NCBI GenBank assembly: GCA_044892505.1
Contig: CM097883.1
Location: forward strand, 151,962,001-152,026,000
Length of the DNA stretch: 64,000 nucleotides
Direction of reading: 5' to 3'
From: Schmidtea nova
Taxonomy: Eukaryota
The notes under the pieces were generated by a model, which was not told where the DNA came from, did not search any database, and worked only from the letters and a program-made list of their open reading frames with translations. Positions 18,401 to 64,000 of this stretch are shown here, one piece after another. The stretch's first letter is position 1, and each line of letters opens with the position of its first letter. The position numbers and the translations under genes are program-made.

Positions 18401-19463
18401 TTATATTATTACTTTTTAAATTTTCATCTTTCTTTTTATTTGCGCATAATTTGTGTACTTTTTATATTATTTCGTGCCTGTTCAGGCCAACCAAAACAAT
18501 TGTAAGAATATATGACAATAATTTATAATTAACTAATTATACAACCGGGTTACTACGATATAATGTTTGTTGACTGATGCAGGAATGTTTGTGTGTAATA
18601 AAGTGAAGTAAGTATGTTTGTAATCTGTACCAATGATGTAACTTAAACTAATAGTACTCGCTTTTCTAGATGACTTAATTAGAAGTACTGTAAATAGTAA
18701 GTAGGTAGTTAATGGCCCTTAAACTCACTTCAAATTCTACCCACCCCCACCCCTAGAAAATTTTTTTTCTGCGTTGACGGGCCACTATGTTTTTCTGGCC
18801 ATTTTTGTATTGGAAATTTATTGTCGGTCTTTTGTACAGGTGCGTTAGCGGGCCATTATGTTTTTGAGTCGATCTTTTGTATTGGAAAATTTTTGTCGGT
18901 CTTTTGTACAGGGATTTTGAGCTCCGAGATTTTGCTCGGGCAAAAAGGGACTCTCGTATTTTTGTACATGGAATTTTGGTCTAGATTTTTTTTTGTACAG
19001 GGATTTGGGCTCCGAGATTTTTCTCGAGCAAAAAAGGACTCTGGTATTTTGTACATGGAATTTTGGTCGAGGTTTTTGTACAGCATTTTCTACTCCCAGA
19101 TTCTTTCTAGGACATAAAGAGACTAGTAATTATTATACAGAAATTTTCAAGAGATTTTTTATGGTAAATAAAAACACGTTAAATTTATCAAAATGTTAAA
19201 TAGATTTAAATGGTTTTTATTTCTATGGTAAAATACAAAGACAAAAGAATGACATAATATTTAAAATTTAAGAAAAAAGGGTAAAATCATGGCAATGTGA
19301 GAGTTGAAATGACACAATATTTAAAATTTAATAAATAAAAATGGTAAAATTAATTTTTTGGAGAAATCAGAGTTGGTAAATTTTTAACTAATAAAAAGAA
19401 AAATTTTTAACTAATAAAAATTCAAATAAATAAAAAGAAACATTTTTAACTAAATTTTATTAA

Positions 19464-20261
19464 AGTAAATCTTCTTCATCGTCTTCTTCTGTAACTTGAT
19501 TGAATTCTCTGTCATTAATGTCTTTATAATGCCCGTATGCACAACTTTCATTTTTTCCCACCCAAACCCTTTTATCATCTTTATTACTTAGTGCAATTTT
19601 TGAATTTTTAAAGCTATATAACTGATGATTATTTTGTACCTATTCTAAATTGTGGTACACTAATCTCTGAGTTATTTAAATAACATTTTACATATGAATC
19701 GTGGTCTATTTTAGTATCCTTTAATGTTGCTCCCTTAGCTTTTGTAGTATTAGTTTTCCCCAACAAGCTGTAACATTTCGGTCTAAGGAAAATCCACTCA
19801 TCATATCCTTCACCCTTACTTTCATCTTTGAATTTCCCAATAACAGAATCCAATTTCTTGCTGTATAGTGGGTGATCAGTTGGATAATTTGATGTATCTA
19901 ACAAGTTATCATTTTTCATTTCATTTAATAATATTTCTAATTTTTAATTTTTAATTTCTAGAAAAAACGAATCTGTATCGCCTGCTACGATATTTATTTG
20001 ACAACTATATTTGTCGCGATATTTTTGTAAATCTTTGTATTGTAATTCGTACATTCGAAGTTTTGATAAATCAAGCACTGATTGTCCAATATAACTCGGT
20101 CTATCTTAACAAATCGAATCTGGATTTAATAAAGCAGCAACTAAATTATCGTCAATTTTAATAGATTTTTTGAAAGAAGGTTTTGATGTATATTTAACTA
20201 GTTTTTTCTCCATTGAACATAATCTTAAATTCATTCTCCTTTTAAGATTTTCCACTGTTTT
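19464..20261 (-). pseudogene. polB: Inverted copy of the pPolB C-terminal part (left arm)
   Basis: KTVENLKRR...AGDTDS...FLRPKCYS...DDKR...AYGHY, with the same two stops and frameshift as the right arm. Confidence 0.9.
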
Positions 20262-20281
20262 CCACTGTTTCAGATGTATAT

Positions 20282-21790
20282 TATCTTCAACCGCTTTTAA
20301 AAAATCTTCTACACAATTTAGTCCAATAAATTGTTGGTAAGATTTTGTCCCATCAAAGTTATTTATTAACAAAAGACCCGCAGAAATAGGCAAGTGTTTC
20401 TGATAATATACATCATCCTTTGGTAAAATTGATTCAAAGTCTGCATAAATAACGAATGGTGGGGTAACAGTTTTTGACCAATCTGTAAATATTAGCATTT
20501 TATTTTCCGGGAAAGAGTATAATGTTGTTCCTAGTTGATTTTTTCTGCATAAAATCTCATGTTTTTCCAACGATAATTTATTTGGGAAACCATTTAAATA
20601 TCTACTGCACCATTCACTTCTTATCCTAGTAGTACAATAAATGCTTTGGTGACAATTCATTAAACGTTTTAAATTTATAATAGATACATAATGATATTTT
20701 CCCCCTTCATTTAATAACAATAAATTTATAGTTTTTCCTTCTATTACTTTTGACCGATGAATAATATCCAAATGAGGATGCTTTAAAATATAATCATCTT
20801 GCTCTTCATTAATTTCATTATTAAAACATAGTACATTTATGATCAAACCTGGATTCTTTGCCTCGAATTTTCTGATACTATTTAATTTCATGGGCATGTC
20901 TGATATATCATATTTGAGCTCTGACAAAAAATTTGTATATTTTGATACTCTTTCTTTAATTCTAGATATTGAATCATATTTTAATATAGCTAAAATGCTA
21001 TATAAAAACATAAATTATCCTTATTATCGATGTTTAATATACATCTCTTTTCTTTTAATCCTTCAGGAGTTTTTACAATGCTTCTACCTGCTAACCTACT
21101 TATATTGGATGACTTAGTTACAACAAAATTTATTTCAGTAATACGATTAAGTACACAACTGCTACCTAATTCCGCAAATGAAGTTATCTTTTCATTCAAT
21201 TTTTTAATTCCCTCTTCGAAAGATGTATGTGTCAGAGGTTTTGCACTATTGGAAATATTGTTTCTTTTAATTTCTCCATCTTTCTCAAATTCAACACAGA
21301 TACCAAATTGTATCTTCACATAGCCTAGTTCGTTAACTATTTCTATTAATTTATTAATAAATAATTGTGGAAAAATAATTTGCTTTATATTTAAATCACT
21401 AGTGTTAATTTTTTAAATCCTATGCGATCCATTTAAATCACTTTCAATGACAGGGAGAAGTTCTATAACACTTCCTCCAGTTTGATAAAATCCAACGTTC
21501 CAAATATCTTCATTCTCTTCCATCGCTTCAATTAAAATCTTGTTTTCATCCGCTTCCACCTCTTCCATCGCTTCTAATAAAATCTTGTCTTCAATCTCTT
21601 CTTGTAAATTTTGTGATTTCTTGATTATTTCTATGTTCAATTTAATCTTTTTATTATTTATAGGGTTTTGAGTCAAGTTTGGTCTTTTAAATAATTTTAT
21701 TTTCTTAAACCTATATTTATTTAAATGATCCTTATGTTCATCGTAAAAAATTTATATGTAAGGGGTTGGGAAGTTTGGCATACGGGACAT
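20282..21790 (-). pseudogene. polB: pPolB N-terminal region (frameshifted)
   Basis: ELGSSCVLNRI..I...SRLAGRSIVKTP..L..KRCILNIDNKDNLCF/LYSILA, FE.KNP.L.INV, LLL...GKYHYVSI.NL.RL and PPFVIYADFESIL are the typical Polinton PolB N-terminus and ExoI region. Confidence 0.85.
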
Positions 21791-22327
21791 ATATAATAGC
21801 GAATTTTATAATAAGAGTGTCCATAATATTGCTCTATTGATCGATAACAATTATCGTTGTGGTCAGTTGAAAAGCAATAATTTGGGTATAAAGCACCTAT
21901 GAATGTAAAGTAATGTTAAAAGAAATAATAATAATATTATCAAATTATATATTTACAAATATTTTACTATATTTATTTACTAAATTAATTAAAAGTTAAT
22001 CAAATTAATTAAAATTAATCAAAACTTACATTGAACATTCAATACCACATCAGGTATAGCTCCATTATTCATAATATTCTCATTATTGACAATCTCAGCT
22101 TGTACGGTAGTTTGTTCAGTCATATTTACATCACCTAAAGTAAAAGTTAAATAATATACTAAGTTAATGATTAAGTACAATTTTCTTCCGCATTTTCTAA
22201 CATCGATTTCCCAATTGAATTATTGAGATTACCTAAATTAATACTAAATGATAATAAATTAAAAAATAAATTTACCATTTTCTTTTCCACTTGGGTTTTC
22301 GTTCCTAAAACTTGTTATAATGTTCAT
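21721..22327 (-). CDS. Predicted 4-exon spliced ORF (128 aa), possibly the 5' exons of pPolB
   Basis: Exons 22327-22276, 22232-22179, 22134-22030 and 21896-21721. Introns of 43, 44 and 133 nt are all GT..AG and phase 1, and the frame stays open from ATG to TAA. The last exon contains CPVC. Confidence 0.6.
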
Positions 22328-22412
22328 TTTAAATGTTTATTATTTGTTAAAAAGAATAATGAATGAAAAAGTATTGTTTATATATCAAAGTTATTACACG
22401 CACATAACCTTT

Positions 22413-22475
22413 GACCAATAAAAATCGAGTAAGGGTAGGAAATTTATTCTTATTAGCCAATCAGAATCGAGTAAG
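22413..22475. promoter_or_regulatory. Tandem CCAAT-containing motif upstream of the spliced ORF
   Basis: ccaataaaaatcgagtaag and ccaatcagaatcgagtaag occur about 43 bp apart, 90-150 bp upstream of ATG 22327. Confidence 0.35.
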
Positions 22476-23050
22476 AGGCAGTAAAGGTATTATTATCATC
22501 AAATCAAGTTCAAGAAAATGATAGAGAATTATGACTAAATATATATTACGTTGCAGTATTTTAAAAAAACTATAAAAGTTATTTCAACAAATTATAATAT
22601 ACATCAAAGTTATAAAATATTTCAATGAATTGCATACATGTCATATGATTAAAATATATTAGACTAAATATTTCAGTGAATTAGATCTAAATTATATTAC
22701 ATTTCAATAATTTCGTCAGTTATAAAAATATTTTAATTAATTTTGATAAAATACATTAGAATTGTCATTAACACACACAAAACTTTTATAATTTTCATTA
22801 GTATATGATAGAAAATTAAATTATATCTACACATGATTATAATAAATATTCGATAAATCTATGCTAAATAGCCGAAAAAATCCAGTATTTTATTACAAAA
22901 CACGTGTGCATCACAAACATATCAATATACCTAATTTTTAATAAAGCTATTTTGTAGAAAATTAAATTTTATCTCTACAGTATTACAATGAAAACTTATT
23001 TAAATTACTTTATATAGACGAAAAATGCAAAATTACTGACAAATCTTCAT

Positions 23051-25178
23051 TGTGTAGAAGATTTTTTAAAAGCGGTTGAAGATATTGCTTTATTAAAAGT
23101 TCTTCCATATTACAATAAAAACGGAAACAAACCAATGAATAGATTGACTGAAATTGAAGAGGATCAATTTAAAAATGGTACCACTTGTTACTTTTGTATG
23201 AAAAATATCGTAGATCCTGTAAGAGACCACGACCATTTCACTGGGAAATATTTAGGTGCAGCATGTCAAACGTGTAACATTAATAGAAAAATCAATAAGT
23301 CTTTACCAATAGTTTTTCATAACTTGAAAGGATACGATATGCACCATATTCTTAAACACGGATTAAATAAGTTCAAGAATTGGTCATTGTGTTGTATACC
23401 TATTACAACTGAAAAATTTATTTCATTGATAGCTCATGTTGACAAGATTAGTTTAAGATTTATAGACTCATACCAGTTTGTGAATGATTCTTTGGCAAAG
23501 GCAGTGAAAACGTTGAAATCTTTACCTTTGACAAATTCGGTTTTTAATGGAACTATAGTTTCTGAAAAGGGTATTTTTCCGTATAGCTTTGCTACAAGTT
23601 TAGAAGTACTTAAAAATACTTATGAGTTACCACCAATCTGGAAAGGTGTTTTAAAAGAAGAATATGAAATGGCAAAACTGATTTGGATAGAAACAAACTG
23701 TGTTACTCTTTTAGATTATATGATGACTTACTTGAAACTTGATTGCTTTCTTTTGGCTGATTTCTTTCATCAATTTCGAACCAAATCTATTGCTCACAAT
23801 AGATTAGAGTCATTGAATTACTTCGGTATTCCTGGCATTTCTTGGTCATCTTCTTTATTGACTTTAGATGAACCAATAGAATTAATAACAGAAAATGAAA
23901 TGTTTAGCTTTTATATAAATAATCTTTACGGATGGGCTTTAAGTCAACCTTTACCTTGTGGAGAATTTAGTTGGGTGACTGATAATTTAGATAATATTTT
24001 GCATGACTGTATTAATCTAAATATTGAATCTATATCTTACGGTTACACTTTAGAGGTAGATTTGGAAATACCTGCTGAAATTCATGATTTCTTGGATGAT
24101 TTCCCGGTAGCTGCAGAAAAAATGAAACCACGAGGTTCAAAAGTAGAAAAATTACTATTGACTCATTACCCTAAAAAGAATTATATAATTCATTGGCGAT
24201 TACTTCAATTATATTTAGGACTTGGTGTTAAAGTCACAAAGATAAATAGAGCAGTTAAATTTAAACAATCTCCAATTTTCAAAAAGTATATAGACACCAA
24301 CACTGAATTGCGGGCGAAAAGTACTAATACTTTAGATAAAAACATTTTCAAATTACTCAATAATAGTCTGTATGGCAAAACAGTGGAAAATCTTAAAAGG
24401 AGAATGAATTTAAGATTATGTTCAACGGAGAAAAAACTAGTTAAATATACATCAAAACCTTCTTTCAAAAAATCTATTAAAATTGACGATAATTTAGTTG
24501 CTGCTTTATTAAATCCAGATTCGATTTGTTAAGATAGACCGAGTTATATTGGACAATCAGTGCTTGATTTATCAAAACTTCGAATGTACGAATTACAATA
24601 CAAAGATTTACAAAAATATCGCGACAAATATAGTTGTCAAATAAATATCGTAGCAGGCGATACAGATTCGTTTTTTCTAGAAATTAAAAATTAAAAATTA
24701 GAAATATTATTAAATGAAATGAAAAATGATAACTTGTTAGATACATCAAATTATCCAACTGATCACCCACTATACAGCAAGAAATTGGATTCTGTTATTG
24801 GGAAATTCAAAGATGAAAGTAAGGGTGAAGGATATGATGAGTGGATTTTCCTTAGACCGAAATGTTACAGCTTGTTGGGGAAAACTAATACTACAAAAGC
24901 TAAGGGAGCAACATTAAAGGATACTAAAATAGACCACGATTCATATGTAAAATGTTATTTAAATAACTCAGAGATTAGTGTACCACAATTTAGAATAGGT
25001 ACAAAATAATCATCAGTTATATAGCTTTAAAAATTCAAAAATTGCACTAAGTAATAAAGATGATAAAAGGGTTTGGGTGGGAAAAAATGAAAGTTGTGCA
25101 TACGGGCATTATAAAGACATTAATGACAGAGAATTCAATCAAGTTACAGAAGAAGACGATGAAGAAGATTTACTTTAA
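23051..25178 (+). pseudogene. polB: Protein-primed family B DNA polymerase, middle and C-terminal part
   Basis: DHDHFTGKYLGAACQTCN, PIVFHNLKGYD, RFIDSY, KGIFPY, YLKLDCFLLAD, NNLYGWALSQPLP, KLLNNSLYGK and AGDTDS. TAA at 24530 and 24692, a +1 frameshift near 25007, and an apparent deletion just before motif A. Confidence 0.92.
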
Positions 25179-26071
25179 TAAAATTTAGTTAAAAATGTTT
25201 CTTTTTATTTATTTGAATTTTTATTAGTTAAAAATTTTTCTTTTTATTAGTTAAAAATTTACCAACTCTGATTTCTCCAAAAAATTAATTTTACCATTTT
25301 TATTTATTAAATTTTAAATATTGTGTCATTTCAACTCTCACATTGCCATGATTTTACCCTTTTTTCTTAAATTTTAAATATTATGTCATTCTTTTGTCTT
25401 TGTATTTTACCATAGAAATAAAAACCATTTAAATCTATTTAACATTTTGATAAATTTAACGTGTTTTTATTTACCATAAAAAATCTCTTGAAAATTTCTG
25501 TATAATAATTACTAGAGTCTCTTTTTGTCCTAGAAAGAATCTGGGAGTAGAAAATGCTGTACAAAAACCTCGACCAAAATTCCATGTACAAAATACCAGA
25601 GTCCTTTTTTGCTCGAGAAAAATCTCGGAGCCCAAATCCCTGTACAAAAAAAAATTCAGACCAAAATTCCATGTACAAAAATTCCAGAGTCTCTTTTTGC
25701 CCGAGAAAAATCTCGGAGCCCAAAATCCCTGTACAAAAGACCGACAAAAATTTTCCAATACAAAAGATCGACTCAAAAACATAATGGCCCGCTAACGCAC
25801 CTGTACAAAAGACCGACAATAAATTTCCAATACAAAAATGGCCAGAATAACAGTGGCCCGTCAACGCAGAAAAAAAAATTTCTAAGGTGGGGTGGGTAGA
25901 ATTTGAAGTGAGTTTAACTACCTACTATAGTACTGTAAAAAAGCAACAATTCGGCCACTAATTTTGACATTGATAATGATTGTCAATAGAACGTTTTATT
26001 TCAAGTTTGGGTCAAGTTTTTTAGTTTATATTTCACTTTGTTTATGAATTATCTTATAAATTAAATAAAAA

Positions 26072-52068: not shown

Positions 52069-55000
52069 CAGTGGTTTCCAACCTTTTTGAACCGGCGCCC
52101 CCTTTTTAAAAAAAAAGTTGGTGCGCCCCCCTTTAAAAAACAAATTGTTGCGTCCCGTTAATTTATCTAAAAATCAAATTTCATAAATACTCAACTGATA
52201 TTATAATTTATTTAATGGGCTACAAAATAATATACAATATTATGTAAAAATATAATATATTTATTATAAGAAATATAATAACAAAACAAAAAAAGAATAT
52301 ATAATTAATACTACTACAACATAAAAATTTAATGCGACGGTTGAGCTTGTTTTTCAGCACAAATTTTCTCAAACCGTGGTATTATTGAAGAAATCGCGGT
52401 TCTTAGTTCCTTTTCAATCATTAAGCGAGATCGATACTTTGTTTTTAAGACAGCTACTGTAAAAAAACAGTTTCACATTGGTAAGATGTTAAAAATGGCA
52501 ATAAAATTTCTAAAGCTTTGTTTGTCAAAGTAGAAAAATCGTCCTTTACTCGTAGCCAAAACGTAACAATATTATTTATATCTAGAAACATCTGCTTTAA
52601 TGTGCTATCACTAGATAAGTCGATTATCATTTCCTGCTCTGCTGTCGTAAGGCCAAAATCATCAACTCTTTCAATCACAAATGGGTTTCTAATCCATTCA
52701 TATTTGGACATGTCAAGATCTTTAAAGTACAAGGAGAATTGCTTCCATAGACTGGTCAAATGATTATTAATAAGAACTTTACTTTCTTCTATTTCATCAG
52801 CAAGACAGGAAATTTTAAAAGTGGGAAACATGTCAAAGTTATTATTTTTCAAACTTATTATCCACAGTTCCAATTTTTTCATAAATGCAGTTCTTGTCTT
52901 TCTGCGTAAAAGCATGAATTTGAGTCCTTTTCATTGATTTATTTAAAATACTGAGTCTTTGAAAAATATCAACTAAATACGCAAGTTTTACAAGGAATTT
53001 CGTGTCATAAAACAAGTGTGCTTCATCTCTATTATTATCACTAAGAAATATGGCGATCTCTTCTTTTAGCTCAAATACCCTTTGAAGTACTTTGGCACGA
53101 GAAAGCCAACGTGCCTCACAATAGTATAGAAGTGATCTATATTCTGAACCCATGTCATCACACAATTTTGCGAAAATCCTTCCTCTTAATGGGCTATTTT
53201 TGATAAAATTTACAACTCTTGTAATAACTTCAAATACTGTTAGTAGATCTTCACCCACATCTCTTGAAACAAGTGATAGTCTATGAATCATGCAATGCGT
53301 CCAAACTGCACGAGGAGCCACCTTTCGAACTAGTACCTGTAGACCAGCATTTTTTCCTGCCATAGATGGAGCTCCATCTGTGCATATTCCAACACAGTTC
53401 TCCCACAGAATATCATTTTCATTAAAAAAATTATCAAGGATTTTAAAAACTTCCCTTATTGTAGTATTGCATTCAATAGGTTTACAGAATAACATGTCTT
53501 CTCTAACATCAGTTTCCACAACATGTCTTACATATGTTATCAAGTGTGCATCCTTAAGAACATCGGTAGCCTCATCTACTTGCAACGCGAAAGAAGATAG
53601 TTTTACTTTTTCTATTAATTGATCGCAAAGATCTTCAGATATATCGAATATTCGTCTTCCCACCGTATTATCTGCAAGTGGAATGATTTTAAGTTGATCA
53701 GCATATGATTAACCGAGCATCGTTTCTATCATGTCAATAGCTGCAGGAAGCACCAAAGTTTCTCCTATTGAATGGGGTTTTTTGCATTTAGCAATTCTAT
53801 AAGAAACTTTATATGACGCAAGCAATGCTTTTTGTGTTACAGACATGGTCTTTGAAAACATTTCTTGTTGTTTATTTAAATTCTCTAATTTTCTTTGGAA
53901 AAATTCTCTTATCTTGCCAACGTGATCTGCATTTACTTTTTCAAGATGTCGTTTTAATTTATTTGGTTTCATGCTGTCTGAGGCCAAAGTATTCATACAC
54001 AGCAAACACAATGGTCGTTCTTGGCCATTAATAACCTTATATGTAAATCCTAATGATAAGTACATTGGATCATATTTTCTATATTTAGGTTTACTATTTT
54101 GCGAAGATGTATTTCCGATATTTTCATCATCTTTTCTTTTGCCCTATGCTTCTGCTTCATTTAATTTTCTTTTCAAGCCAGTTACGTATTTATCCATCTA
54201 AAAGGGGTATTATTTTAAATCATAAACTTTATATTAATTTAAAATAAAATAAATTATATCAATATTTTCTTTTAAATTAAATATCAGTCTTAATTGGGAT
54301 AATTTTTAAATGTAGAATTAAAAACTAATTTTGTCAAAATTAATTACTGAAATATAAATAACATAAAAATAACTTGCGCTCTTCTTACATAAACGTGAAT
54401 TTTTCTAAAATCAAAATTCATATTACTCAATTAAAACGGTTACTGGTAAATTTATGAGAAAGTAAAAAAGCGCTAGTAGTGAAAAAATAGTATATTAACA
54501 TCGGCCAGGATGTTATTTTATTGTTTCGGATGTGTATAACCCTGGCACTTCGCGCTCGTGTCGAAAAACTACCTCAACATTAAATTAACATTTCCTGGTT
54601 AATAAGGTACTATTATAACAGTTATGAAATTTACCTCAATGTTAATTTATTTAGAAGTTACCAAAGCGAAGTGTTTCATTCTATATATCAACGTGGTTAT
54701 CGCAAGCACTACTAACGAACTAATTCTGTTCATAGAAAACAGAAACAATCAGATGCTTCTGTTTACTGAATTCTGTAACCAAAGTCTAAAAGGTAAGGTA
54801 GACTTAGGCAGTCAATAGTGCAAGGAGGTGGGTTTTAGCGTGTGCAAGGCTCACAGTACCTAGAACTGGTGGTCGAATATAATGGAAACATATACCAATG
54901 TTTCTATTCTGAATGGGTATAGTTAAATTATAAAGACATAGTAATAGGTCTCCGTAGGATTTCCCACCCATAGGCAACAAAAAAAAATTCTGTTTATTGA

Positions 55001-57689: not shown

Positions 57690-60130
57690 TGATTGAAAAT
57701 TATAATATCGGGAATCCTCTCTAGTCGATCTCACAATTAAAGGCTCTTCAATTGTCTTATCGTGTTTGGTGGTGGATGAGTTGCCAATGGGCATTGATCA
57801 TATTTTAGGAATGGAAGTTATTTTTCGAAAGAGCGGCTTATACATCGATGGAAATAAAGCTACTTTTGGGATACAGTATCGTTGGAGGCGCAATTGTGTC
57901 TCACTGACCGCATCAATGACGATGATTTGAGAAAAAGAGACAGTACATTGGAAGTGGTCTGGAGGGTCACCAACACTGAGAAATCAGAGAGGGATTTACC
58001 ATTTGAAAAACATGTGAAGGAAACCTTTGACAAAGAAGTTAAGCAGTGGATTTCAAACGGTTAATTACAAGAATATCATTAGTCACATGACGGAGTCATA
58101 CTTTTGTTAGCAATTGATCAGGTTAATAAAAGAAAGATTCGGCCACTAATGAATTTCCGAGAGCTAAACTAGTGGGTCAAACGTTACACAGGAGATAGCG
58201 ACGTTTGCTCAGAGACGATGCGTCAATGGCATTGAACGGGAGAAGAAGTAGTTCTTCTTGATTTGCGTAATGCTTACTTGCAGATTCACATTGAAAAGAA
58301 CATGTGGCGATATCAATGATTCGATACGCGGGAAAGACTTACTGTTTAACACGCTTAGGATTTGGTTTAAACTGCGCTCCCAGGATAATGTCAAAGATCT
58401 TGCGAAGGGTGCTTTCTTCTAATGCTGTCATTCGAGATGTCACCTTCAGCTATATCGACGACATAGCAGTGGACTCATCAAAGGTGAATCCAAAGGCAGT
58501 TGTGGAACTGCTCGACTCATTTGGACTTAAGACTAAAGATCCGGTACCCATCGAAACACACAATGGCGTTGGGGCTGTCTATTTTTCGAACAGAAAGCAA
58601 CGAGCTGAGGTGGAAGAGAGGAAATCAACTCTAGAACCTTGACGTAAACTAGTCAGGCTCAAGGCGAAAGTTAATTTCAATTTGTGGTTGGGCACAAATC
58701 CGGTGGCAAATGGCTGCGAGTCGTCTGTAGCTTCATTAGGTGTTTGAGCGACGGAGATTCAGAGGATGATGATGTTGATGTCTAGAGCAAACGGCTGTCA
58801 TCAGGGCTGATCGGCCGAGTGACAAATCAAGATCCAGTTGAAGGAATCTGGCCTGTAAGTAGATCCAGCGAAGGAAGAGTTTGATAGTGATGCCAGTAAT
58901 CTTACACTGGGGTCTGTTTAGAAATCAACAGAAACATAGTAGAAGATGCCTTTTGATTACGAAAAAAGAACGATTATTTGCACATTAATCTCGCAGAACT
59001 AGAAGCCGTTTTGCGTGGAGTTAATGTTGCGGCTAGATGGTGCATTCAAAGAATAACTATTATAACCGATTCGGTCACAGATTTCAAATGGGTTGACAAC
59101 ATTCTGTCCGGAAAGAGGAATGTGAGTACCAGCAGCAGCTCCGAGATGTTGGTTGAAAGGCGACTTGGTATGATCAAGCAGTTAGAAGAGGAGCTCAGAC
59201 TAGAAATATCCATCGAACTGGTGAAATAAGAAGAAAATTAGCGAACACTCTGATGCGGGTACCCAAAGTTTGGCTGAAGTATTGCTCCACAATTATTATT
59301 GGTTTTTCTCTATCTTTAGTGTCAAAAATGCATTGGAAGCATCACATGAGCATTAATCGAACGCCTTACTTAGCCAAGAAGTATGATCCAATGATTAACT
59401 ACAATATGGTTAAGGAAGTTATCGATTCATGTAATAAGTGTAAGATGTTTGATCCAACCCCAATAACCTGGGAGAAAGGTACATTGGACGTGAATGAAGA
59501 ATGGACCCGAATTGCTGTTGACGTAATTTGTGTGAACGCGGATCTTTTTCTTTCAATTATAGATTGCGCGCCTAGCAGATTTTGCATCTGAAAGAAAAAC
59601 TCTAATGACGATTCACTTTCTATTATCAATGCGCGAAGCACTGTGTTTCTGGCAAAGGTTTCAGTGAAAGAAATTCTGACAGATAAGGTATTGAACTTTC
59701 GATCTGCAGAGTTCAAACTATTGCAGGTATGTGAGACTTAAATCTAAAATATCGTTGTGCTTACAGACCTGAATGGAATGGCATTGCAGAAATAAACCAC
59801 AGAACTTTCAAGCGGATAGTTGCTAGATCAGACTGTGACCCGCTAAGAGTGGTATTCTTTTATAATATCACTACTCACTCAGGCTTGGACGATAGTACAG
59901 TACCTGCAAAGATGCATTTTTGTCGAACGTGAAGGTGCCTGGAGTTTCTGGGAAGCAAAGACGAATTTGATAGCCTCGACAATTATGATTAAAATCAATA
60001 GGCTGTCGGAATCTCTTATTCGTCAAGCCGCCGAATGGAAAATGCAACATACTTTGGGCCGTTGGTACAGTCACCGGAATCAATTTCTCATATGTCGATG
60101 GTACTTCGAGACACGTCAGTCATCTTCGAA
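57690..60130 (+). mobile_element. pol: Decayed Ty3/gypsy-type pol (PR-RT-RH-IN order); no LTR pair found
   Basis: IDHILGME (PR); IRPLMNFRELN, LDLRNAYLQI, LTRLGFGLNCAP and YIDD at 58451 (RT); HINLAELEAV..ITDS (RH); HHCC, AVDV..IDCAPSRF and CAYRP..NGIAE..HRT (IN). Confidence 0.9.
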
Positions 60131-61478: not shown

Positions 61479-61531
<53 letters not shown>

Positions 61532-61557
61532 GAAACGCCAATCCAAATATATATTCT

Positions 61558-61598
61558 GCACAATATATTTCGAGAAATTTTTTCTCATCATCAGATGC
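61558..61598 (-). ncRNA. Minimal hammerhead ribozyme, family A (intact core, G-U in stem I)
   Basis: gcat CTGATGA t gagaa-aaaat-ttctc GAAA tatat t gtgc. Confidence 0.7.
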
Positions 61599-62227
61599 TA
61601 TTCAATCTTCAATCCAATATAAATCAAATAAATTGATTTTTCAAATGTCATGAGTGAAATGTCACATACCTTAGAAAAGACTACTGGTCTTCTTTGTATT
61701 AGAGTTTCAGAGCATAGTCAATTTATTGGATTTAGCGTTGTTTCCAATTATATCAATGTTTGTGAATATGAGTGTGAGAATGTTGAGTGCGTGTGTTTAC
61801 TTCAATTTTTGAGGTTTAAGTAAATTAACTGATGCGATTGTGACGATTCTTGTTTTCTTTTGATCTTTATTCTATACTCGTTTAATTTTTCAAAAGTCAT
61901 TGGGGAAATGCCACATACTTTGGAAAAGACGTCTTTTCTATACTCGAGTGTTAGAGCATTTTCAATTGATGATTATGGACTTCGTTTTCAGTCATACTGT
62001 TGTTTATAAATATGGGAATATTTAAAAAATATTCTTAAAAAATATTTTTAAAAAAAAAGAATATCATTTTTTAAAATTAATTTATTTAAATTAAAAATAA
62101 AATAATTTTATCGTTTTAAATTTTTTGGCTATTTTATAAAATTACAATATACATTTTATTTAAAACTTATGATTAATTTGTTTGAAAATTACTTTATTTG
62201 ATTTATATTCGAATGGAATATTGAATA

Positions 62228-62268
62228 GCACCTGATGATGAGAATGAAGTTTTCAAAATATATTGTGC
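62228..62268 (+). ncRNA. Hammerhead motif, family A (G12>A, probably inactive)
   Basis: gcac CTGATGA t gagaa-tgaag-ttttc aaaa tatatt gtgc. Confidence 0.55.
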
Positions 62269-62323
62269 AGAATATATATTTGTATTGGTGTTTGTTTTTA
62301 ATTATTTTAGTGCCATGTTTGTT

Positions 62324-62358
<35 letters not shown>

Positions 62359-64000
62359 GATATAGTAATGGAGAACAAAAGTATTCATACTAAACTAGAG
62401 TTACTATTGGCTCTTGTTTATAGTAAAAACAACAGTCAAAAATTTTGTTTTGGCGGAAAACGACTAGACGAAGATCCTGAAAACTTTACAATCAACAATG
62501 TTGAAATATCCATACAATTGTCAACTAGAATTTTGAAGAATTCCAAAAAAATATTTCCAAATGATTGTCTAACAATATTCAGATATTTTTGAGACAAGAA
62601 AATATCAGTAGACAGTTTTTTAGGGGCTCAAACTCAGAAAGTGAAAGGATTAGAGTTGTACCGAGCTATCTAAAAATGGACAATTTCAAGATATTAGGAG
62701 GATATTTTACTACAATTACGAGAGGAACAAACGAGAATGGAACAGCAGAACTTTGTTGTACCGTGAAAGAATTAATCATGTTCTCAATGAAAACATCTCC
62801 TGTCAGTTTATAGACCAGATCAAATCAATTTATTAATCGGTAGAGATATCATAACGAAGTACAACAACAAAACGACTGTTGACTTGAATAGAATGTATTT
62901 TGTCATTTATCTTTTCATTTTCCTAAAGTTATTAAAAAATACAATAGTGATATGATTTTTATTTTAGTTATCTAAATTCAGTTTAATACATTTAATTAAT
63001 AATCTATATTTTTATTTGCTAAATTTTTTCAAAAAAGCTTCACTTACGGTAAATTTTATACTAATTAGATTGTGGAGAATTTTTATTGGCAAAAATAGAT
63101 TTTATATAAAAATTAATTGCACTCTCGCTTTATTACATCGAATTTTATTTTAGGTTTTTAATAATTGACAATGTTACATTGAAAAATATATATTTTGCCA
63201 CAAAAAAACTTTAAAATAATTAAAATAAACTCTTCTTCATATCATTCCGATATTTATTTAATAAATATAAATAATGCTGAATTTATTATTGAATTTTATT
63301 TATTTAATTATTTATTTATTATAAATTAAAATTATCAAATATTTTAAGATTAATTAATTCTAACAAATGTTAATCTAAATATTTCTAAAATATTAAATCA
63401 ATTAATTTTTTTCTTTTGTAAATGACCAAAGAATGATTTACTAGCTAAAAAGTGAATAAAAATAATTGATGGAAAGTTTCTTTACACAATTTTACAAAAA
63501 TGTATTTCATTTGTGATTAATGCTTAGTGGACCAATGATGGAGAATTGTAGAAGAGAATTGTTCCACAAAAAAAATGCATTGTAAAAACAATGCCATTCA
63601 AATTAATAATTTAAATACCCAATAATTAAAATGTCGTGAGGACTGACGAAATAAAAGTAAAATTAAACACTGGATAAATAATCATCATTTTCACCAGACC
63701 AAATTGAATTGGCCTCGCAAAATATTTTAATAAAATTCGCCCCATTAATTATTAAATTGTAATTCTTGGTGTTTATCTGAATTCAATCGAAGAAACAAAT
63801 GTCTGTAATTATTACGAGAATACAATGAAAATACACCCAGGAATAGGGAACTGTTGATGGGGAGAATGACAAATTGCATTGAATGTATTTTCTTGCAAAT
63901 TACAGTGACTTGGACATTGCACAATTTCATTTGCAATTAAGGGATTTAATGGTAATTTTTAACTTAAAGAATCTTTAAAGAATTGCAAAATGATTGGGTC

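Follow-up and report, generated by a model that had tools for sequence, protein, structure and literature searches.

Most vertebrate Mavericks, or Polintons, are degraded: fossils account for 96% of the copies, of which each genome holds 8 - 287. The intact elements measure 12.7 - 24.6 kb, their terminal inverted repeats (TIRs) are 46 - 1,447 bp long, and the termini of the vertebrate elements read (AGT)2 or (AG)3 (PMC8097293, in the accessible portion of its text). A Polinton-derived element from Schmidtea nova is described here. It occupies positions 18700 - 25926 (7,227 nt) of a 64,000-nt stretch of contig CM097883.1 (assembly GCA_044892505.1, positions 151,962,001 to 152,026,000 of the forward strand). 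This whole stretch is referred to as the window, and all coordinates are counted from its first letter. The element is inert now and is a fossil. An original prediction, made from the letters alone, had described it as a copy-back molecule that carries only the polymerase gene PolB. Most likely its map is real, unusual and more complex than first described, and the element is a dead Polinton that was reworked in place by known repair processes. On balance, we consider it probable that the rearrangement took place in the chromosome, by template-switching repair of the host, long after an ordinary insertion.

Several described systems resemble parts of this locus. In Galileo of Drosophila mojavensis, growth of a TIR is attributed to repair that drew internal sequence from the opposite end, and the authors state, by way of a 2007 review, that expansion of inverted repeats has been reported for Polintons too (PMC3573991, as far as the available sections go). 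Butterfly Polintons have gene-containing TIRs of ~2 kb, which duplicate hexon and adenain, and these elements are full-length and recently mobile (10.1101/2025.02.07.637071, in the sections at hand). In C. elegans, Polinton TIRs are proposed, in the excerpt available, to have driven an inversion (PMC11414722). Inverted repeats also seed break-induced replication (BIR), followed by junctions of microhomology-mediated BIR (MMBIR) or non-homologous end joining that contain templated insertions (PMC11293582, in its accessible part). No copy-back or defective-interfering Polinton, and nothing with the architecture of this element, was found in the literature searched, outside which lie most subscription papers, including the founding Polinton papers. 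Copy-back defective viral genomes have been described for RNA viruses. They are made by one turn-back, and their ends are expected to be exact complements.

The element starts with AG and ends with CT, as the TIRs of Polintons do. It is flanked by an exact 6-nt target-site duplication (TSD), ATAGTA, at 18694 - 18699 and 25927 - 25932 (plus strand), the length expected of a Polinton. At the local composition, the chance of a 6-mer match is 6.5e-4. The predicted termini and TSD were thereby confirmed, as was the derivation from a Polinton, which is supported by PolB, the AG...CT ends and the TSD. The end motif is AGTAGG and not an exact (AGT)2, and alternative parsings of the boundary between the element and the TSD give poorer ends. 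The TSD had been called clean. The duplication is indeed exact, but the target site consists of a short repeat of 12-nt period (18684 - 18699 and 25927 - 25939), which overlaps the TSD on both flanks and either predates the insertion or arose during its repair.

The inverted arms, which had been estimated at ~1.55 kb, extend over 18719 - 20261 and 24377 - 25917 and are 98.8% identical over 1,545 alignment columns. As claimed, they include ~800 nt of PolB 3' coding sequence (24377 - 25178 on the right), and the same two stops and frameshift are found in both. The stops at 24530 and 24692 and the frameshift near 25007 in the plus-strand part of PolB are mirrored at 20106, 19944 and 19631. Both stop sites are spanned by the alignments of 53 of the 55 closest homologs. 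Each arm is made of two parts. The left outer arm (18700 - 19124, plus strand) is an old TIR with tandem sub-repeats of 72 and 88 nt. The right outer arm (25516 - 25926, plus strand) is also an old TIR, and has a private 10-nt deletion ~9 nt from its tip. The left inner arm (19125 - 20261, minus strand) is a young copy of the right interior and contains the 3' end of PolB at 19460 - 20261 (homolog residues 980 - 1226). The right inner arm (24377 - 25515, plus strand), which is continuous with the middle part of PolB, is likely to have been its template.

The differences between the arms are concentrated at their outer ends. A pairwise alignment shows 11 substitutions and 5 indels over the outer 425 nt, which are 2.6% apart, whereas the inner 1,137 nt contain one substitution, at 20212/24426 (0.09%). 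The contrast of 11/425 with 1/1,137 has a Fisher p of 5e-6 (blastn counts 12 outer substitutions; 11 was used in the tests). The p value is 0.007 when a cluster of seven substitutions in the tandem repeats is taken as one, and 0.01 when the comparison is restricted to the first 70 nt, which lie outside the tandem repeats. At the outer rate, 29 inner differences would be expected and one was found. The ratio of the rates is about 29-fold as a point estimate and 2.6-fold on a conservative estimate. The step in divergence is located near 19124, and the outer drift amounts to 1.3% per arm. One of the outer indels is the loss of 10 nt near the right tip, which the left end keeps. Because this deletion has no counterpart on the left, the ends are not twin copies, and the original claim that both termini are the same end was not confirmed. 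Decay of the copy appears to have come first, accompanied by divergence of its ends; duplication or homogenisation of the inner arm followed at a late stage. The old outer arms, the nearly identical inner arms and the deletion at one tip imply that the copying took place long after the insertion and stopped short of the ends.

PolB is nearly complete, but it is present in pieces and in two orientations when compared with a homolog of 1,242 residues (P0001, 58%); five more homologs agree. The middle and 3' part (residues ~500 - 1226) is at 23049 - 25178 on the plus strand, and contains an HNH/endonuclease VII-like finger and the DNA_pol_B_2 domain. Pfam returns PF03175 at E=1.3e-23 and PF02945 at E=1.5e-4, the latter below the cut-off. 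The 5' half (residues 1 - 515, approximately) is inverted with respect to the rest of the gene, at about 21837 - 20282 on the minus strand, and continues in frame into residues 980 - 1226 of the left arm. It is broken by a stop at 21413 and by frameshifts near 21005 and 21760. The protein-primed polymerase expected of a Polinton is thus recognised by PF03175 and by coverage of nearly the whole homolog, although the gene is broken. A 1.2-kb upstream segment of the family (21838 - 23048) is inverted together with the PolB 5' half. It is AT-rich, contains a short open reading frame (ORF) at 22019 - 22219, and gave no convincing match in Pfam, Atlas, Rfam or the related loci.

A 36-nt sequence, which encodes the 'CVEDFLKAVED' stretch of PolB, is present at 20282 - 20317 (minus strand) and 23049 - 23084 (plus strand). 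The two copies are a 100% inverted match and stand one at each inversion breakpoint. The left copy adjoins a junction filler (20262 - 20281) composed of a 10-nt tandem duplication of the inner end of the arm and ~10 further nucleotides. These match nearby element sequence, but their source is ambiguous, as the 10-mer recurs at five other places; the filler was likely templated, to judge by this match. Two internal junctions are therefore visible, together with an inversion with a 36-nt duplication, and the arrangement is not that of a single break-and-rejoin.

Contigs from sequencing runs X1, X2, X4 and X5 (four of the seven runs) were aligned to the element, and the observations refer to 40 of the 271 substitutions, 15 of the 257 joints, 24 of the 3,320 loose ends and 32 of the 31,202 pieces. 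In contig 25 of X5, the minus-strand sequence 20542 - 20282 runs straight into the plus-strand sequence 23085 - 23358, and loose contig ends at 20282 in X1 and X4 have the same continuation. As the related sequences are continuous across the breakpoint, it is in this copy that 20282 - 23048 has been inverted. The upstream segment is covered by family contigs in X1, X2 and X4. The junction with the right flank is bridged, with no differences, by record 6 of X1 and record 23 of X4, which reach 38 - 39 nt into the element. The depth of these contigs is 48.4 in X1 (flanks 48 - 50) and 11.5 in X4 (flanks 11 - 12). The deletion at the right end is thus found on contigs at the depth of the flanks, which fits a loss private to this copy. 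On the left flank, contigs of X1 and X2 have no differences and show the longer end, but reach only 27 - 28 nt into the element, under the 31-nt rule for bridging.

The age of the decay can be compared with that of the outer arms. Between the window and the eight X5 pieces listed, 58 of 2,489 nt differ (2.3%). Over the duplicated part of the arm, 10 of 628 nt differ (1.6%), and all 10 differences are common to both arms. The outer drift of 1.3% per arm is of the same order. At many of the sites examined, most or nearly all of the contig depth has a letter other than that of the window, including two frameshift sites (19631 and 21003) and a stop site (21414), as would be expected if the decay is specific to this copy. 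Summed contig depth over the element in X1 is 1e5 - 6e5, compared with ~48 for the unique flank contigs; it is not a copy number, but hints that the family is far larger than the range of copies found per genome in vertebrates. The ratios of summed depth (0.96 - 1.24 for the duplicated part of PolB to the PolB middle, and 2.2 - 3.0 for the outer repeat to the middle) would by themselves point to a native TIR that is short, but they cannot rank the parts and were not counted as evidence. A loose end at 19287 in X1 was considered as the native edge of the TIR and rejected; it lies in a ~50-nt repeat region, with an agreement of 0.63.

On sequence grounds, the element is a defective Polinton/Maverick derivative. 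Outside PolB, the element was hit at E<=0.01 by none of the 300 ORFs taken from 76 related loci, although integrases, A32-type ATPases and capsid proteins are among them. The predicted absence of these genes was thus upheld. An autonomous Polinton has an integrase, a packaging ATPase with a capsid gene, and a length of 12 - 25 kb, and none of these is found here. PolB is the sole recognised Polinton gene, and its inverted 5' half between the 36-nt duplications had been overlooked. In L008, a relative at 47% identity, PolB is found beside an integrase, an A32 ATPase and a double-jelly-roll capsid gene. This Polinton-like locus, which has a close PolB relative, also encodes a TBP-domain protein (L008:10321-10764, PF00352, E=2e-17). 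A search of IMG/VR returned no match to the terminal motif and one distant locus for PolB. The element resembles Polintons/Mavericks in its protein-primed PolB with an HNH-like finger, its AG...CT ends, its 6-nt TSD and its internally repetitive TIRs. It differs from them in its length (7.2 kb, and not 12.7 - 24.6 kb), in having only pieces of PolB, in its AGTAGG end and in the inversion of the PolB 5' half. The polymerase can be placed with the Alpha/pfam03175 type, as in adintoviruses (PMC8502044) and, for a pPolB2 with HNH, in PMC10748475, by likeness to the descriptions in the accessible parts of these papers and not by a tree.

The following history would account for the map. A complete or longer Polinton would have integrated in the normal way, with formation of the TSD, and the inserted copy would have decayed in place while its ends drifted apart. 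A stalled or broken fork would then have been repaired by template switching. The first switch may have used the homology between the terminal repeats near 19124, after which ~1.1 kb of the right interior would have been copied in reverse. The second would have involved 10-nt slippage and the filler, skipping 1.3 kb of the PolB middle and landing at the 36-nt stretch. With the third, synthesis would have run back through the PolB 5' half and the upstream segment, and would have been rejoined where that 36-nt stretch begins. The sequence and genes between the left repeat and PolB would have been lost and 2.8 kb inverted, whereas the old ends and the TSD would have remained untouched. In an alternative order, a staggered-break inversion would have been followed by extension of the repeat; these two events would give an identical map. 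One repair path would suffice for the undamaged ends and TSD, the lesions common to both arms, the greater age of the outer arms, the inversion and the 36-nt duplication. As the TSD would be left from the original insertion, integration in trans is not required. A gene-containing inverted duplication of 675 nt, without any part of a Polinton, is situated 18 kb away in the window, and was counted in favour of repair.

The proposed history has parallels in Galileo and in rearrangements classed as DUP-TRP/INV-DUP (duplication-triplication/inversion-duplication). Like the 2RT copies of Galileo, the element has the interior beside one TIR repeated in inverted orientation beside the other, an intact TSD and no autonomy. 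It therefore resembles the extended-TIR (2RT) type, but is not itself a Galileo element. Galileo belongs to the P superfamily, and the sequence copied is a spacer of some hundreds of nucleotides, whereas here it is ~800 nt of coding sequence, accompanied by an inversion with duplicated breakpoints. As in DUP-TRP/INV-DUP rearrangements by BIR/MMBIR, a switch would be hidden in an inverted repeat, which the step from 2.6% to 0.09% divergence near 19124 would fit, synthesis would have proceeded in reverse, and a further junction has an insertion or microhomology. This second junction is represented by the 10-nt tandem duplication and the putatively templated filler. Unlike those rearrangements, the event is on a kilobase scale within a transposon, and the product is a deletion-inversion-duplication with no triplication. 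The TIRs of the butterfly Polintons also duplicate core genes, but here there is one dead copy with a partial duplication of PolB.

Several points weigh against rearrangement in the chromosome. A faster mutation rate is conceivable in the outer arms, since they consist mostly of tandem repeats. The one substitution between the inner arms stands 49 nt from the junction, where it could also mark the limit of late gene conversion in a fold-back of greater age. At the outer rate, the probability of zero differences is 0.08 for the 95 nt near the junction and 0.39 for the 36-nt pair. The junctions 20262 - 20281 and 23048/23049 were not seen among the contig alignments listed. Runs X1 - X4 belong to one study, which may be the source of the assembly, and X5 may represent another population, in which case 2.3% is an upper bound on the decay.

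The original prediction was that a dead copy had been replicated off the chromosome by the protein-primed polymerase of a helper, had turned back, and had been integrated in trans as a unit. The element does resemble copy-back genomes in that both of its ends are flanked by inverted copies of the interior of one side, while the genes of the other side are missing. Exact ends with a TSD and lesions common to both arms speak for this origin, and so does the apparent abundance of the family by contig depth, since helpers may then have existed; PolB-less Polintons are apparently still mobile in butterflies, in the part of 10.1101/2025.02.07.637071 that is available. However, copy-back in trans predicts twin ends, made at once and drifting evenly, and one rejoin point from a single turn-back. 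The 11 substitutions and 5 indels of the outer arms stand against one inner difference, one tip has a deletion, the ends are old and differ from each other, and the map includes an inversion and three junctions. An extra switch onto the other old end would be needed, and a copy damaged at one tip would have had to be mobilised. As had been proposed, the template of the inner arm was already mutated, but integration as a unit is at odds with 2.6% and 0.09% in the same arms, and we regard this origin as quite unlikely. It is doubtful, too, that the Polinton's own polymerase switched templates on the free linear genome, that the integrase of a helper inserted the fold-back, and that the arms were later homogenised or an old-ended dead copy remobilised. 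If this were true, the genome would have preserved a trace of Polinton replication off the chromosome and of packaging or integration that depended on a helper, and further copies sharing these junctions would be expected.

A fold-back might also have formed early, either ahead of the insertion or shortly after it, perhaps through the element's own polymerase; recent gene conversion between the inverted arms, from about 19124 to 20211, would then have carried the lesions across and removed the divergence. The TSD, the shared lesions and the old outer arms are explained equally well in this way, the sole inner difference lies near the junction, and conversion among TIR copies has been invoked for Galileo (PMC3573991, in its available text). 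Conversion would have had to cover 1,087 nt or more of arms that had by then diverged by ~2.6%; the 95 junction-near nucleotides outside the tract contain no differences (P=0.08), and two separate events would replace one. This makes it unlikely. It is highly improbable that the map is an artefact of a gapped short-read assembly of a very repetitive family, either through a false join of the left end with another partial copy in inverted orientation or through collapse of the inner arms into one sequence. There are ten N-gaps in the window, but none inside the element. The inner arms are identical over 1,087 nt, which is more than insert sizes usually measure, and no contig listed spans the element; yet read contigs agree exactly with the two flanks, which have the TSD in common, and the filler and the 36-nt duplication are unique sequence. 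Arms that are 2.6% apart are normally not collapsed, and just one difference is present close to the inner junction. The parent family may natively have had TIRs of ~1.5 kb with the PolB 3' end inside them, in which case secondary change would be limited to the inversion and the deletion. Gene-containing Polinton TIRs of ~2 kb do exist, and those of vertebrate Mavericks reach 1,447 bp (10.1101/2025.02.07.637071 and PMC8097293, as far as the text of each is accessible). Such repeats would be equally old throughout, however, and would not have copy-specific stops in common, and none of the 76 related loci has an inverted second PolB end, though most of these are short contigs without the far end. 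We find this the least credible of the explanations, to the point of near dismissal.

If the element was rearranged in the chromosome as proposed, long, gene-containing 'TIRs' of Polintons can arise after insertion, with the ends and the TSD intact. Neither long TIRs nor a perfect TSD in a single copy would therefore reveal what the mobile parent was like, or prove that a defective element had moved. The divergence measured along the arm provides a cheap way of telling the two cases apart. Should the junctions recur elsewhere, they would instead give direct evidence that Polintons form defective-interfering genomes and can be mobilised in trans. To our knowledge, there is little direct support for the Polinton replication cycle.

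The window contains a second, heavily decayed Polinton relic at 35960 - 37560 on the minus strand, possibly extending to 39800. It matches three adjacent ORFs of L008, including the double-jelly-roll capsid gene, at 44 - 54% identity. No integrase, PolB or matching ends were found for it. The sequence 37427 - 37578 is similar to 39622 - 39779 (68%). The capsid relic was considered as the lost half of the element, but rejected, because it is 10 kb outside the TSD and has no nucleotide match to the element. It is adjoined by a tandem array at 39811 - 40727 (357-nt unit, 2.6 copies, 94%).

The inverted duplication mentioned above is at 43775 - 46094. Its arms of ~675 nt (99%) are a fragment of a SET-domain gene, placed around an HSP90 fragment (PF00183), and contain genes without a Polinton; their outer 85 nt are more divergent. 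The duplication is enclosed, together with an intronless RING fragment (PF14570), by 130-nt inverted ends (95%) at 42220 - 46809, the left of which abuts an assembly gap. The RING fragment presumably resembles CNOT4, and the whole looks like a Pack-type element that carries pieces of host genes. Another element, at 5663 - 10602, has 247-nt inverted ends with one mismatch, two gaps inside and no recognised ORF. Broken hAT-like transposase (DUF659, below the cut-off) and retroelement fragments (RVT_1 and zf-H2C2, weak) are found at 52454 - 54143 and 58295 - 59591. A near-perfect hairpin of 451 nt (98%, with a 22-nt loop) at 34011 - 34934 belongs to a dispersed family of fold-back repeats, further copies of which are at ~3400 - 5550, 30230 - 30980 and 61480 - 62360.

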